Shown piece by piece: positions 2,446 through 64,000 of a stretch of DNA of 64,000 bases. The notes under the pieces are model-generated. The model was not told the DNA's origin. It ran no database searches and saw nothing but the letters and a program-made list of their open reading frames with translations. The stretch lies in NCBI RefSeq assembly GCF_053078305.1, contig NZ_CP166879.1, one strand, 5' to 3'. Position 1 is the first letter of the stretch. Every line of letters begins with the position of its first letter. The position numbers and the translations under genes were made by a program.

Positions 2446-2703
2446 TCATACTTCCCAGTAAACCGTGCATCCGCTTATGCGGGTGGCTTTCACACGGCGG
2501 CGCAGGCCGTTGGTCTTAACGGTGATTTCAATTTCCTCACCACTCCCCTGAACCTCGCCTACCGGCGGCGTGGTTTTCAGTGCAAAACGTTGCGGATAGC
2601 GCTTACTGCGTTCCAGTACCGCACCGGCAAGCTCGGTCAGGCGACGTGCGCTGTTCAGGGAGTCGAATAAATTCATTTTTTTACCGCTGGATTGCATATT
2701 CAT
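2446..2703 (-). CDS. hypothetical small prophage early protein (85 aa)
   Basis: ORF in early operon between the B-like and gam-like genes. Confidence 0.4.
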   Translation of the reverse strand: MNMQSSGKKMNLFDSLNSARRLTELAGAVLERSKRYPQRFALKTTPPVGEVQGSGEEIEITVKTNGLRRRVKATRISGCTVYWEV

Positions 2704-2715
2704 ATAACACCTCGT

Positions 2716-2943
2716 TTAACTGATTTGTTCAGCACCGATAAAACGGCAAATATTGCTGTAAGTTTCTGTCGCACCTTCGCGATCAAGTCCAACAGATATT
2801 GCCATTCGGGTGCGATCATTAAATTCAAAGAGTAAATCGCCACATTCTTCACTGTCAGACATGGAGACTGCTTTGACGTTATCGAAATTAACCAGGTAAA
2901 AGCGTCCGTAAATATCAGGAATATTAAATACCGCCATAATCAC
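2716..2943 (-). CDS. small early protein, possibly Kil-like (75 aa)
   Basis: Position immediately after the B-like gene and size match Mu kil; sequence identity not confirmed. Confidence 0.35.
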   Translation of the reverse strand: MIMAVFNIPDIYGRFYLVNFDNVKAVSMSDSEECGDLLFEFNDRTRMAISVGLDREGATETYSNICRFIGAEQIS

Positions 2944-3872
2944 ACCTGTGAAAGTAATTCAGGGTTGGTGTAAACCTCTTTAAAGGCCGCATTAATATGT
3001 TTTTCTGTCAGCGCCGCGCCTTCACCGCTGGCGGTGAGCCACGCCTGGTTAAGCGTATGTGTCAGAACGCGTAACGCCCCCGGCTTTTCAGCGATAGCCT
3101 GCATGACGGCCAGCTCGGCCTCACCACTGATCCCCCACGCCCTGGCAATGGCCAGCACATCCGCCTTTTTGGCCTTGCGAAGTTGTTTTGTACGGGCAAG
3201 ACGGCTGAACAGGCGCGATAAATCATCAAAGGCGCGGCGTCCACCTTTAAACAATCCGCGCGGGTTACCAATAAGTACCATCCCGATCCCCGTGGCGTCC
3301 TGAATTGCCCGGAGTTGTTCCAGACCGTCAATACCAAGATGATCTGCTTCGTCAACAATCACCAGTCCACGTGTTCCCGTCAGGCGACGGCGGATGGCGC
3401 GGGATAATGCCCCTTTGTTCGCGCGGGTGTAATCAATCCCCAGCGCATCGGCCAGCTCCAGCAAACACTCCGTGACGCTGGAGTGCGCGGGCGACAGGGT
3501 GATCATCCAGGTGTTCGGTTGCTCCTGACAGTAATTACGGGCCGTGGCCGTTTTACCCACACCCGGTACGCCCACAATGACGTTAATACAGCCCATCAGG
3601 CGAACCGCCTGAAACAGTGCGCGCAGCTCCTGGACTGTCTGCGTTTCAACAAACTGTGGCGGCTCGGGCAGTGCGCTTTGTTTATTCCAGTTCTCATACC
3701 AGGAACGCAGGGAAGCAGCCACAGCAGCGTTATCGCCTTTATATTTTCCCTTACGGAAAGCCGATAATGTGCCGTCGGAAATTCCCGCCTCTCTGGCGAT
3801 GGCATACTGCGTCAGTACGCCGCCATCAATAAGTTCATCAATGGTCTTGATTACATCGTTAATATCAGTCAT
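2940..3872 (-). CDS. MuB-like DNA transposition ATPase
   Basis: 310 aa, Walker A GVPGVGKT, N-terminal HTH-like segment, located after transposase as in Mu. Confidence 0.8.
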   Translation of the reverse strand: MTDINDVIKTIDELIDGGVLTQYAIAREAGISDGTLSAFRKGKYKGDNAAVAASLRSWYENWNKQSALPEPPQFVETQTVQELRALFQAVRLMGCINVIVGVPGVGKTATARNYCQEQPNTWMITLSPAHSSVTECLLELADALGIDYTRANKGALSRAIRRRLTGTRGLVIVDEADHLGIDGLEQLRAIQDATGIGMVLIGNPRGLFKGGRRAFDDLSRLFSRLARTKQLRKAKKADVLAIARAWGISGEAELAVMQAIAEKPGALRVLTHTLNQAWLTASGEGAALTEKHINAAFKEVYTNPELLSQV

Positions 3873-7005: not shown

Positions 7006-7272
7006 TTTGGCGAGGCTGGCCCGTATGTTAGTTGCCATATAGATTTAATGAAGTTTTAAACGCTTTAAAAAAGTTGAGATCGCAGTATCAAAAGTTTTGC
7101 CGATTTTAGAATAAACGATTAATTATTGCACAATCGGTATCAAATAGACTTTAAGCGCTCATCCAGACATCACCTGTTTTATTTCAGTATCTTACAGGTG
7201 ATTTCACCTCCTTTCACTAAAACCCTCGTTGGTATCAAATGATTCACCTGGTTACACCAGGCACAGAGTAAT

Positions 7273-7626
7273 GTGACCCAAATGATGCGCATGTTTAACT
7301 TTATGAAGAGTGTCGGCGCTACCCCCATCGTTAAAGCCATTGATGTTCCCGGTGAAAAACTGAACTCTCTGGAAGAACTGTTCCAAAAAACGATGGAAGA
7401 ATACGAGCAACGTTCTAGTACGTTGGCACAGTTAGCCGATGAAGCGAAAGAACTGAATGATGATTCAACCGTCAATTTCCTGCGCGATCTGGAAAAAGAA
7501 CAGCAGCATGATGGCCTGTTGCTGCAAACCATTCTTGATGAAGTGCGCAGTGCGAAACTTGCGGGTATGTGCCCAGTGCAGACCGACCAACATGTTCTGA
7601 ATGTCGTGTCGCATCAGCTGCATTGA
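7273..7626 (+). pseudogene. ftnB: ferritin-like protein FtnB, 5'-truncated by prophage insertion
   Basis: 117 aa ORF matches the C-terminal two thirds of FtnB; in-frame stop at 7240-7242 and no ferritin N-terminus upstream. Confidence 0.8.
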
Positions 7627-7669
7627 TCATACATCGGCGCTAATGCATTGCGCCGATGAAGTTTTTGAG

Positions 7670-7707
7670 AAACCGCTGCCTCATCTTTTTGAAGCAGCGG
7701 TTTTTTA
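7670..7707 (+). terminator. rho-independent terminator after ftnB
   Basis: Hairpin accgctgcctc...gaagcagcggt followed by T-run. Confidence 0.6.
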
Positions 7708-7956
7708 ATGGGATTCGCCTTGTGGGGTAAACTTGAGTTCAATCAGCGCGATGGCTTTTTGGATTGCCCGCATGGTGACCGGGTCTGCGGCGGCGGGATG
7801 GTTAGTAAAGTCGATATTCTTCAGCTGGCTGGACATTTTTTCGCGAACTTCAACGGGCGCGATTACATCGAGAACATCCAGAATTTGTTTGATAACCAAC
7901 TGGCAAGCAACCACATCAGAAACCAGTTCCTGATCGGCATTCAGCGGCTGGGACAT
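7705..7956 (-). CDS. yecJ: DUF2766 protein YecJ
   Basis: 83 aa ORF; synteny between ftnB and azuC. Confidence 0.85.
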
Positions 7957-8035
7957 CGTAATCTCCTGATAGCATTTTGAAAGCCGTTATAGTAGCGGCT
8001 TCACATCTTCAGCGATAGTCACATCCACCGTCACC

Positions 8036-8070
8036 AGGACACAAAAAAACCTGCCGGAGCAGGTTTTTTT
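8036..8070. terminator. bidirectional rho-independent terminator
   Basis: aaaaaaacctgccggagcaggttttttt hairpin flanked by A-run and T-run. Confidence 0.7.
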
Positions 8071-8071
8071 G

Positions 8072-8158
8072 TTATCGGAACATATTGCCTGGCGGTACGT
8101 CTTTGAACGTCTTGCAATAGTTATTGAACATACTTTTCAGGATTTTGCGCAGTTTCAT
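8072..8158 (-). CDS. azuC: small membrane protein AzuC (28 aa)
   Basis: Reverse-strand translation gives MKLRKILKSMFNNYCKTFKDVPPGNMFR. Confidence 0.85.
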   Translation of the reverse strand: MKLRKILKSMFNNYCKTFKDVPPGNMFR

Positions 8159-8419
8159 CGCGGCACTCCGACCATTTGTTATACAGGTGTTATTGTCTTT
8201 GCGCTTATAATATGACAACCATCACAAAAATCAATCTTTATGTGATGCAAATCACATAAATACCCCTTTAATGTTATAAAAATGATAATCAAAAAGCAGC
8301 CCCCCCTTTCTGACACCTACAGATGGCGAGAAATAGCGCCTGCCAGGCGTCTTTTCCGGCCATTGTCGCAGCGCTGTAACGCGTAAAATACTGCTTTCTT
8401 TTACTCTTCTGGCTGGACC

Positions 8420-8743
8420 ATGAGACTTCTGATTCTGACTCTTTCATTAATAACGCTGGTGGGGTGCACAGTTACTCGCCAGGCTCATGTGGGCGAAGTT
8501 GACGCGGCAACAGGTATTGTACGGTTGGTTTATGACCAGGCTTTTTTGCAGCATGCCCATACCGATCGTTATGTCAGTCGCGGGATCGCCGATCGCGCAT
8601 GCCAGCAGGAAGGCTATACCCACGCGATCCCCTTTGGTCAGCCAGTAGGCAACTGTAGCCTTTTTGCGGGTTCCTTATGTTTGAATACGGAATTCACTTT
8701 GTCATATCAGTGCCATCATTCCGCCTTCCCTGTCTTTCTCTAA
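8420..8743 (+). CDS. yecR: lipoprotein YecR
   Basis: 107 aa; lipobox LVGC signal. Confidence 0.85.
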   Translation: MRLLILTLSLITLVGCTVTRQAHVGEVDAATGIVRLVYDQAFLQHAHTDRYVSRGIADRACQQEGYTHAIPFGQPVGNCSLFAGSLCLNTEFTLSYQCHHSAFPVFL

Positions 8744-8913
8744 ATATTTTAATCAGCGAGGGGATCTTCGCTGATTAAAGAAATAGCGGTAATGCGTTTT
8801 ATTCCCATTCGTATTTTTAATAATTGAAGTTTATATTTTACCTTTTGCAAATAATAAAATAACAAATTATAGTGACGCCACAGCAACAAATATAACCTTT
8901 GTGGAGCACTATC

Positions 8914-12012: not shown

Positions 12013-12099
12013 TGGTACCCGGAGCGGGACTTGAACCCGCACAGCGCGAACGCCGAGGGATTTTAAATCCCTTGTGTCTACCGATTCCACCATCCGGGC
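12013..12099 (-). tRNA. leuZ: tRNA-Leu
   Basis: 87 nt; reverse complement matches tRNA-Leu with long variable arm and CCA end. Confidence 0.9.
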
Positions 12100-12111
12100 T
12101 CGGGAAGAAAG

Positions 12112-12185
12112 TGGAGGCGCGTTCCGGAGTCGAACCGGACTAGACGGATTTGCAATCCGCTACATAACCGCTTTGTTAACGCGCC
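12112..12185 (-). tRNA. cysT: tRNA-Cys
   Basis: 74 nt; reverse complement GGCGCGTTAACAAAGCGG...CTCCA. Confidence 0.9.
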
Positions 12186-12238
12186 AAATTCTTCAGGCCT
12201 TTCAGCCAGACATCCGCTGACGCCGATGTCTTTTAAAC

Positions 12239-12314
<76 letters not shown>

Positions 12315-63070: not shown

Positions 63071-63131
63071 CATTGATAAAGTGGCGGAGAGAGGGGGATT
63101 TGAACCCCCGGTAGAGTTGCCCCTACTCCGG
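63071..63131 (-). pseudogene. tRNA-Ser (serU-type) 3' fragment, 5'-truncated; probable integration-site core copy
   Basis: Reverse complement matches tRNA-Ser from the anticodon arm through T-arm, acceptor 3' strand and CCA; similarity stops after ...ttttcgagacc at 63131. Confidence 0.75.
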
Positions 63132-63352
63132 TTTTCGAGACCGATGATACCGAACCGTAAAATCAAAAGGTTATAAATTTTTCTTGGAATAAATGTCTTA
63201 AAAACATACACGCAAAATCAATAAATTACGCGAAATTTGAGAAGAATATTCCAAGCCTTCTTTGAGTTATTTTTAACCATCTTGCTGTTTTTCTTTCTGA
63301 TAAAATATTGCCTGATATCCCTTAACATTACTAATACTTGCGTAGTGAATGT

Positions 63353-63682
63353 ATGAACAATCCGAATCCATGCATGACGTGTGGTGCCTGTTGTGCATTT
63401 TTCCGCGTCTCTTTTTACTGGGCTGAAGCCGATGATGCTGGCGGTACTATTCCCGCCAGGCTCACTGAACAAATATCCCCTTTTCACCGATGCATGAGCG
63501 GTACCAATCAGAAAAACCCCCGATGTGTCGCTCTGGCGGGAACTCCGGGTAAAAACGCATATTGCTCTGTTTACAAAAACCGTCCGTCCACATGCCGGGA
63601 ATTCGCAATGTCCGGAGAAAATGGCATCGCGAATGATGCATGCAACCGCGCACGGGCAAAATACGGACTTCCGGAAATCTGA
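63353..63682 (+). CDS. YkgJ-family (UPF0153) cysteine-cluster protein
   Basis: [21 protein letters not shown]... with CxxCxxCC and later Cys motifs; lies beyond the tRNA fragment. Confidence 0.6.
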
Positions 63683-63810
63683 AAATTATCCATATCAACA
63701 GAGTGCTCCTGAAACAAGATCAGCATCACGTACAGAATTAACATTTCCGTGGCAGTATTCGTCCGGCATAGTGTATACCTTCACAATAATGACATAATCA
63801 ACGCAGTTCA

Positions 63811-63840
63811 TGGGGGAGGTGATGGTCCCCCATCTTTTTG
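63811..63840 (+). terminator. rho-independent terminator
   Basis: Hairpin gggggaggtgatggtccccc followed by tcttttt. Confidence 0.55.
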
Positions 63841-63845
63841 TCTGT

Positions 63846-64000
63846 TATTCCTGTGCCCAGCCAACCCTGTATGCCAGTATCTCATCCGCACTGGTCAGCT
63901 TTTCCAGCTCCTTCTTCATGGTGCGCTGCCGGACGTGGATTTCCATCCCTTTGGTGAACATCGCCTGCTCTGCCGCTTCACTCAGCGCTATAAGCTCTTC
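63846..64000 (-). CDS. hypothetical protein, C-terminal part only (5' end beyond window)
   Basis: Open frame to the window edge ending ...KLTSADEILAYRVGWAQE then stop at 63846-63848. Confidence 0.4.

Follow-up and report, generated by a model that had tools for sequence, protein, structure and literature searches.

What is a short gene for a cysteine-cluster protein doing next to a fragment of a tRNA gene, and does it serve the mobile element that carries it, the bacterial host or neither? The question is raised by the right-hand end of a 64,000-nt stretch of contig NZ_CP166879.1 (RefSeq assembly GCF_053078305.1), hereafter the window, where an open reading frame of 109 codons follows a tRNA fragment in what had been described as a putative island. 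The family membership of the encoded protein and its prophage context, as described below, are nearly certain. We consider it likely that the reading frame is a functional, prophage-borne gene for a short YkgJ protein. Such a gene would be cargo resembling that of the lambda b region, forming a unit of its own, encoding a probable Fe-S protein and being dispensable to the phage.

A short YkgJ-family protein

The reading frame opens with an ATG at 63353, closes with a TGA at 63680-63682 and encodes 109 amino acids. As listed, the frame starts further upstream at TTG 63338. Since the homologues all open with MNNPNPC or MSNLNPC, the ATG is taken as the true start, and it is preceded by a weak Shine-Dalgarno sequence. 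The original prediction had assigned the protein to the YkgJ family on its cysteine motifs and had proposed a search against the profile PF03692 (CxxCxxCC). The assignment stands, as the Pfam profile HMM matches significantly at E=1.8e-12 with 48.2 bits (gathering score 23 bits). The match is full-length, covering positions 1-85 of the 85 in the profile and residues 6-98 of the protein, and PF03692 is the sole Pfam family recovered by hmmscan at E<=1. Pfam describes this family, formerly UPF0153, as a 'putative zinc- or iron-chelating domain', a wording that allows either metal. Searches of NCBIfam, PHROGs and PADLOC, covering phage-family and defence or anti-defence libraries, produced no match to the protein.

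The cysteines of the window protein comprise an N-terminal C7-MT-C10-GA-C13-C14 motif followed by C47, C58, C71, C81 and C97. Their conservation was assessed in an alignment of 95 diverse homologues drawn from 1.8 billion cluster representatives, 93 of which themselves match PF03692. C10 and C14 are invariant in this alignment, and C7, C13, C58, C71, C81 and C97 are conserved in at least 90% of the homologues. All eight of these family-conserved cysteines are retained in the window protein. The AlphaFold2 model of the protein has a mean pLDDT of 94.4 and a pTM of 0.84. A chance or mis-annotated, non-coding pseudogene frame could point to the small size and the weak ribosome-binding site and to nothing else. 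This reading is already refuted by the full-length profile match, the retained cysteines, the high pLDDT and the strong purifying selection described below, and its probability is close to nil.

The end of a serU-integrated lambdoid prophage

To the left of the tRNA fragment, the window carries zinT and yodB as K-12 does. Near-identity to K-12 extends from the yodB-serU spacer through the 3' 62 nt of serU and then gives way abruptly to unrelated sequence, at the point where K-12 continues with the remainder of serU and then mtfA. The serU fragment is the junction between prophage and chromosome (Table 1). It represents a copy of the att core, namely the displaced 3' copy of the tRNA attachment site, beside yodB. 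ARAGORN reports no tRNA at these positions, as expected where only a tRNA fragment is present, and Rfam yields only partial, T-arm-like matches there. The gene had been predicted to be the first past the tRNA fragment, and indeed the K-12 identity stops at 63143 with the ykgJ ATG following 209 nt on.

Only the end of the prophage falls within the window, and the complete layout was read from JNEC-KY171, the best match among 5426 complete E. coli genomes (94.6% over 1.1 kb). There, yodB and the serU fragment are followed by a gene annotated 'YkgJ family cysteine cluster protein' and then by DUF4376, tail fibre, hok/gef, gpJ and other tail genes. The whole forms a complete lambdoid prophage of 54.6 kb, bounded by the serU fragment on one side and an intact serU on the other, and its content includes terminase, capsid, portal, lysis, Q, replication and immunity genes. 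At the far end, xis-like and tyrosine integrase genes precede the intact serU and mtfA, and int and ykgJ lie on the same strand across the att site. The putative island of the original prediction can thus be sharpened to a serU-integrated lambdoid prophage, with ykgJ as the last gene at its tail-fibre end. A functional partner, also suggested to be sought in the neighbourhood of the island, did not emerge. The sole neighbour of ykgJ is a convergent gene resembling those for tail-fibre assembly, located beyond a terminator.

The same arrangement recurs in other prophages. The gene occupies the same position in the serU prophages of AR_0085 and JNEC-KY202. In the latter, a gene for a YadA-like protein separates ykgJ from the tail genes, and ykgJ itself is a pseudogene with an internal stop. 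Strain 04-00955 carries ykgJ at the same end of a prophage that adjoins an intact tRNA-Ser beside the hya operon, and in Salmonella prophages ykgJ adjoins DUF4376 and a BOF-domain gene. A probe made of the 3' half of ykgJ and the downstream spacer, which is too diverged from chromosomal ykgJ to cross-match by megablast, has matches in 177 of the 5426 complete E. coli genomes, with a maximum of five places in one genome. Two RefSeq prophage-end copies, WP_097746236.1 of JNEC-KY171 and WP_001367470.1 of 04-00955, share position, orientation, DUF4376 neighbour, terminator and upstream arm with the window gene. The coding sequence of the window is 92% identical to both at the DNA level, and its 3' half with the downstream sequence is 98.1% identical to that of 04-00955.

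Table 1. Features at the prophage end of the window (coordinates in nt from the first position of the window).
Feature	Coordinates	Strand	Evidence
tRNA-Ser(CGA) serU, 3' 62 nt (acceptor 3' strand, T arm, variable arm, anticodon loop)	63082..63143	-	K-12 identity
A+T-rich prophage arm, 209 nt, 5' region of ykgJ	63144..63352	+	GC 36-38%
ykgJ-like CDS, 109 aa, PF03692, short-form prophage-associated lineage	63353..63682	+	Pfam, K-12 identity, dN/dS
K-12-identical tract inside ykgJ (gene nt 82-174)	63434..63526	+	mismatch counts
Intrinsic-terminator-like hairpin and T-run, 128 nt past the ykgJ stop	63810..63840	+	fold, conservation
DUF4376 tail-fibre-assembly-like gene, 3' end (last 51 codons and stop)	63845..64000	-	KY171 identity

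A probable transcription unit of its own

The A+T-rich sequence between the junction and the start codon is probably the P arm of attP. Of the 5426 complete E. coli genomes, 126 contain the full 201 bp of this arm and 699 contain its first ~115 bp. Two copies of an 18-nt direct repeat lie within it (63156-63173 and 63211-63228), a two-copy family that could be due to chance. A consensus scan of the 209-nt arm did not reveal a convincing sigma-70 promoter. The single weak site returned (63135-63163) overlaps the att junction, and an extended -10-like element, TGATAAAAT at 63298-63306, was spotted by inspection.

An intrinsic terminator had been proposed at 63811-63840, and both the fold and its conservation agree with it. 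A G+C-rich stem of 8 bp, five of them G-C pairs, spans 63810-63833 and is followed by CTTTTTGT. Taken alone, the hairpin is a modest signal, since its energy of -16.2 kcal/mol (shuffle z -1.64) is equalled or surpassed by 12 of 200 shuffled sequences. The same hairpin is kept in the KY171 and 04-00955 prophages, and the corresponding place in AR_0085 holds another hairpin, of different sequence, with a T-run, which brings the terminators found 3' of ykgJ to four prophages and two different sequences. The hairpin would end the ykgJ transcription unit and part it from the convergent tail gene. The part of that gene present in the window has a translation identical to the C-terminal end of the DUF4376 protein of JNEC-KY171 (223 aa). 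The DUF4376 gene runs convergently to ykgJ and continues past the window end.

By its observed position, ykgJ is the outermost gene of a serU-integrated, lambda-like prophage, between the att junction and the tail-fibre-assembly gene. The gene orientations suggest that ykgJ is transcribed alone, up to the terminator that follows it. While the prophage is integrated, ykgJ would be cut off from the early transcription of the phage and would rely on a promoter within the 209-nt arm. Excision may alter this setting. Since int and ykgJ are co-stranded, the excised circle would place ykgJ just past int, in the same direction across attP and convergent with the tail genes. In that configuration, early leftward transcription could extend into it. 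The co-directionality with int in the circular form counts in favour of an alternative in which YkgJ is an enzyme of the lytic cycle. Expressed through the early leftward operon, such an enzyme would modify phage DNA, the virion or a host protein, for example by N-methylation of amines and perhaps as a counter-defence.

A mosaic allele related to the chromosomal gene

The window protein is 88% identical to K-12 YkgJ (b0288, NP_414822.1), without gaps. The K-12 protein, named a 'putative metal-chelating domain-containing protein', also has 109 amino acids and the same nine cysteines, but its gene is chromosomal and lies between yagU and ecpE, whereas the window copy resides in a prophage. Homology between the two loci extends from ~5 nt before the ATG to the stop codon. 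As it ends at the borders of the reading frame, promoter, 5' UTR and terminator all differ.

Within the gene, similarity to K-12 is unevenly spread. Gene nt 1-81 are of the prophage type, with only four diagnostic sites in this part. The following nt 82-174 show no mismatch to K-12, and nt 175-330 carry 46 mismatches to K-12 (~70% identical) and 8 to KY171. Over nt 93-165, the window gene has 16 and 15 mismatches, respectively, to two prophage copies. The K-12-type tract is a feature of the window allele that the KY171 and 04-00955 copies lack. Diagnostic sites delimit a minimal tract of 63445-63517. The simplest reading of this pattern would be that gene conversion has transferred 73-93 nt of a chromosomal-type ykgJ to the prophage gene.

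A chromosomal-type conversion tract in the window allele implies that the copies do recombine, and this would suit a passive passenger. Under such an alternative, ykgJ would be host DNA that an ancestral phage acquired through imprecise excision. If it had any role, this would not be as a protein but in offering homology for recombination with the chromosome or a secondary site where other phages attach. The alternative draws on the finding that many STEC prophages carry, at their ends, sequences that match the K-12 ykgJ/ecpE intergenic region with 81-84% identity (Nakamura et al. 2021, PMC8112680). Lying upstream of ykgJ-like sequence, they provide a secondary attB of ~96 bp ('attB-in-PP_2') for the integration of one prophage into another (PMC8112680). 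The match between VT1-Sakai and K-12 ykgJ/ecpE could be reproduced with 83.8% identity over 309 bp (blastn, word size 7). An attB-in-PP_2 was likewise expected upstream of the window gene and was ruled out. With the same word size, blastn finds no match in the window to the K-12 sequence upstream of ykgJ, and nothing in the 209-nt arm is homologous to the K-12 sequence between ykgJ and ecpE. Lacking ykgJ/ecpE-like sequence upstream, the window gene does not carry an attB-in-PP_2. The confinement of the K-12 homology to the reading frame and the absence of the attB-in-PP_2 intergenic sequence count against the passenger alternative.

Selection and decay

The YkgJ protein is under strong purifying selection in intact copies. 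Comparing the window gene, K-12 ykgJ and three prophage copies, dN/dS ranges from 0.05 to 0.11 for every pair at dS values of 0.28-2.0 (Nei-Gojobori). Such ratios in intact copies at dS of up to 2 are unlike those of neutral passenger DNA. Many phage copies are fragmented or frameshifted, as a passenger might be. Among 53 loci in IMG/VR, ~18 are intact, ~14 are frameshifted and ~19 are short fragments, and the frameshifted copies have a common frameshift after codon 16, at a T5 run. The DUF4376 gene lies convergent and 156-250 nt downstream in 29 of these 53 loci. A survey of 50,697 deposited phage genomes recovered a full-length homologue in two Acinetobacter phage records only (MD-2021a; 49% identity). 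Fragments of 27-46 residues, mostly N-terminal, are all that ~50 Stx and related phages retain of ykgJ.

With about two thirds of the viral-contig copies frameshifted or truncated, ykgJ is dispensable cargo for the phage. Any benefit it confers is conditional given the frequent decay in other prophages. We consider with moderate to high confidence that prophage ykgJ is functional cargo and not a passenger, and a purely passive role appears improbable. The same surveys bear on the lytic-cycle enzyme. The full-length, 49%-identical homologue in the Acinetobacter phage records is in its favour, whereas the frequent truncation or frameshifting of ykgJ in otherwise complete lambdoid prophages and in Stx phages is not.

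Likely chemistry and control by RyhB

The structural model of YkgJ has no significant neighbour in the PDB (Foldseek) or in BFVD. The best PDB hits, topped by SET-domain methyltransferases, are at chance level (E>3, TM ~0.24), and BFVD returned only a weak match (E 0.16) to another phage protein described as a 'zinc- or iron-chelating domain'. A sequence search of the PDB with the window protein also gave no match. Clues to the chemistry might instead come from two larger proteins with related cysteine motifs, FliB (~400 aa) and DpdM. FliB, the flagellin lysine N-methyltransferase of Salmonella, has eight highly conserved cysteines with a related motif, and experiments have demonstrated its Fe-S cluster (PMC8598068). 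The phage-encoded DpdM is a dPreQ1 N-methyltransferase with DUF3109, of which YkgJ is called the E. coli homologue by the authors (PMC10516641). Two Cys4 metal sites are predicted in DpdM from CxxxCxxCC and distal cysteines, with the metal-site cysteines extending to residue 150 in phiSM and residue 222 in VH7D (PMC10516641). FliB, DpdM and the window protein are alike in having an N-terminal Cx(2-4)Cx(2-3)CC motif and distal cysteines, with eight conserved or predicted metal-site cysteines altogether in each. FliB and DpdM are larger and have large extra regions, whereas the 109-aa window protein is a cysteine core of ~100 aa without additional regions for substrate binding or oligomerisation.

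By analogy with FliB and DpdM, YkgJ is most likely an Fe-S protein, possibly with a second metal site, and our confidence in this is moderate. The CxxCxxCC motif and the four distal cysteines would hold a [4Fe-4S] cluster and might provide the second site. Such a protein could be a small module whose catalytic or redox activity depends on the Fe-S cluster. We do not class the window protein as a methyltransferase, because it has only the cysteine core and the extra regions of FliB and DpdM are missing, which makes catalysis of their kind far from certain. A Pfam scan found no member of the 95-homologue alignment matching DUF3109, and we know of no YkgJ with methyltransferase activity. If YkgJ were a minimal Fe-S N-methyltransferase like FliB and DpdM, it would be a small modification enzyme spread by phages. 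Both characterised proteins with a related motif are N-methyltransferases, one of them a phage DNA-modification enzyme, and this agrees with a role in the lytic cycle. Against such a role stand the missing FliB and DpdM regions, the absence of DpdA/preQ pathway genes among the annotated genes of the KY171 prophage, and the near-identical K-12 gene, which is chromosomal and regulated as a host iron protein. A lytic-cycle enzyme is quite unlikely, and functional, phage-dispensable cargo encoding a probable Fe-S protein is the preferred reading.

RyhB is a small RNA that shuts down non-essential iron proteins as an iron-sparing response. Chromosomal ykgJ is listed as a validated RyhB target (PMC4666370, PMC8534726). 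Deletion of ykgJ leads to filamentation in maturing biofilms (PMC8743551). Pairing was computed with RNAduplex between the RyhB core only and the region from -60 to +40, as a run with whole-length RyhB was uninformative. For K-12 ykgJ, the predicted duplex reaches -29.9 kcal/mol (z -3.4), with the pairing TACTGG...GAGCAAT around the ATG. For the window gene, the value is -20.2 kcal/mol (z -0.9) and the K-12 pairing site is not conserved. The absence of the computed pairing site is a weak, purely computational hint that prophage ykgJ may escape RyhB control.

History of the family in enteric bacteria

A second form of the gene exists in enteric bacteria. In Klebsiella, Salmonella, Pectobacterium and E. 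albertii, a YkgJ-family gene of 134 aa lies between ompW and yciC-yciB, 25-58 nt upstream of yciC. The corresponding ompW-yciC interval of K-12 is only a 356-bp spacer without a YkgJ-family gene. The ompW-adjacent protein belongs to the same Pfam family, has the same cysteines and is 68-70% identical over the 109-aa core. It differs from the window protein, which ends at residue 109, in having an extra C-terminal tail of ~25 aa, and its gene is core chromosomal and falls into a separate clade. The adjacency of this ompW-linked orthologue to yciC-yciB is suggestive only.

In a neighbour-joining tree built on 109 columns, the 109-aa forms make up a single clade (bootstrap 920/1000) that excludes the ompW-linked genes. 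Besides the window gene, the clade includes K-12 ykgJ, prophage copies of E. coli and Salmonella, and a chromosomal copy of Citrobacter. The region upstream of K-12 ykgJ is common to Salmonella prophage copies (115 bp) and to VT1-Sakai (193 bp). These patterns fit a mobile, phage-associated lineage of short forms that would include E. coli's own ykgJ. An origin of the K-12 upstream region in the enteric ompW-ykgJ intergenic region, through capture by an ompW-integrating phage, was rejected as the DNA sequences share no homology ahead of the ATG. A more far-reaching scenario is speculative and rather doubtful. It would have short YkgJ spread by phages, with K-12 ykgJ delivered by a phage and replacing the ancestral ompW-yciC-linked orthologue. 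Chromosomal and prophage copies would still be converting one another, and the prophage copies, with their different 5' region, might provide YkgJ activity not repressed under iron starvation.

Significance and comparison with known systems

The window gene is ordinary and already known, being an intact prophage allele of a known, biochemically uncharacterised family. Nothing at the locus points to a new kind of system. RefSeq already names the same gene at the same place a 'YkgJ family cysteine cluster protein', and a YkgJ-like reading frame is present in the VT1-Sakai record. Phenotypes of the family are indirect only, namely its status as a RyhB target and the biofilm filamentation of the ykgJ deletion. 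The repeated carriage of an intact, selected copy by lambdoid prophages of E. coli and Salmonella makes YkgJ slightly more attractive for biochemistry. The mobile clade of short forms, the loss of the ompW-linked orthologue in K-12 and the conversion tract are modest side points that can be checked, and they tie to the known ykgJ-derived secondary attachment sites in STEC prophages.

The Stx1 phage VT1-Sakai provides a direct comparison, with H0002 (BAB19558.1) described as 'similar to E. coli K12 YkgJ' in record AP000400. The order of SOS box, dinI and ykgJ in VT1-Sakai raised the idea of a Gifsy-type antirepressor by likeness to the dinI-gfoA operon, which was rejected. The Gifsy dinI-gfoA operon is located near replication genes, and the word 'cysteine' occurs nowhere in the text of the paper (PMC3121763). 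Like the window gene, H0002 is YkgJ-derived and sits immediately within the att site that closes the tail-fibre end of its lambdoid prophage. H0002 is truncated to 66 aa, whereas the window protein is full-length. A dinI-like gene, for which an SOS box is annotated, precedes H0002, whereas neither dinI nor an SOS box is present upstream in the window. VT1-Sakai also keeps ~190 bp of ykgJ/ecpE-like upstream sequence, which functions as the secondary attB and of which the window has none.

The setting of ykgJ in the window resembles the lambda b region and morons. The phage can dispense with the b region, which is located between the tail-fibre genes and attP. Its genes are read by the early leftward transcript, and lambdoid prophages keep cargo there. 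The window gene likewise runs from attP towards the tail genes in the direction of the lambda ea genes, is non-essential and has a terminator of its own. The likeness to a cargo locus extends to JNEC-KY202, where the gene for the YadA-like protein is other cargo inserted beside ykgJ.

Origin and variation of ykgJ

E. coli's own ykgJ may be of phage origin. The sequence-based case for this rests on the distribution of two forms of the YkgJ family. Klebsiella, Salmonella, Pectobacterium and E. albertii carry a 134-aa family member in the ompW/yciC-yciB interval, and in this comparison with other Enterobacterales the yciC-ompW interval of K-12 holds no YkgJ-family gene. The chromosomal ykgJ of K-12 instead groups with the prophage copies in a separate clade of 109-aa forms (bootstrap 920/1000). 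Exchange between chromosomal and prophage copies might also have continued. A tract of 73-93 nt in the window copy matches K-12 ykgJ exactly and is flanked on both sides by prophage-type sequence, which looks like the product of gene conversion between the two. Among viral-contig copies (IMG/VR loci), a common frameshift follows codon 16 in about 14, at the T5 run of GCATTTTTCCGC; a few of these return to frame downstream. The shared frameshift indicates either recurrent or inherited inactivation.

Genomic context

Cargo genes seem to enter serU prophages in the spacer between ykgJ and the tail-fibre-assembly gene, because in the prophage of JNEC-KY202 two genes are inserted there (locus 7076-8908), one for a YadA-like family protein and a small hypothetical one, with ykgJ still adjoining att despite the inserted cargo. 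The partial record of phage P-EibE ends in a 3' fragment of ykgJ, hence the YadA-like cargo may be Eib-related. On the att side of the window gene, the A+T-rich arm between the serU fragment and the ORF contains two direct repeats, which could be arm-type binding sites of the integrase, or a two-copy family arisen by chance. Together with zinT, yodB and serU, the tRNA cluster suggests that the window corresponds to ~1.98-2.04 Mb of the K-12 map, with the K-12 comparison covering the zinT-yodB-serU end.

Features located in the window
Feature	Position	Strand	Context	Basis
tRNA-Leu(TAA), tRNA-Cys(GCA), tRNA-Gly(GCC) cluster	12013-12314	minus		
18-nt direct repeats CGTAAAATCAAAAGGTTA / CGCAAAATCAATAAATTA	63156-63173 and 63211-63228		A+T-rich arm, 55 nt apart	
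K-12-identical tract	63434-63526		inside ORF 63353-63682	comparison with chromosomal ykgJ

Regulation of ykgJ copies

Around the start codon of K-12 ykgJ, a pairing site for RyhB is predicted (-29.9 kcal/mol, z -3.4), whereas the prediction for the start-codon region of the prophage copy (63293-63392) indicates that the site is not conserved (-20.2 kcal/mol, z -0.9). Judging from predicted pairing, the prophage copy may thus escape repression under iron starvation. A different regulatory context is found in VT1-Sakai, the Stx1 phage of O157 Sakai (AP000400), where, at locus 2542-3213, a dinI-like gene precedes the truncated ykgJ-like ORF H0002. Nothing comparable to the dinI-like gene, with its annotated promoter and LexA box, is present upstream of the window ykgJ. 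Given its position downstream of these elements, the H0002 version of VT1-Sakai would be SOS-inducible.
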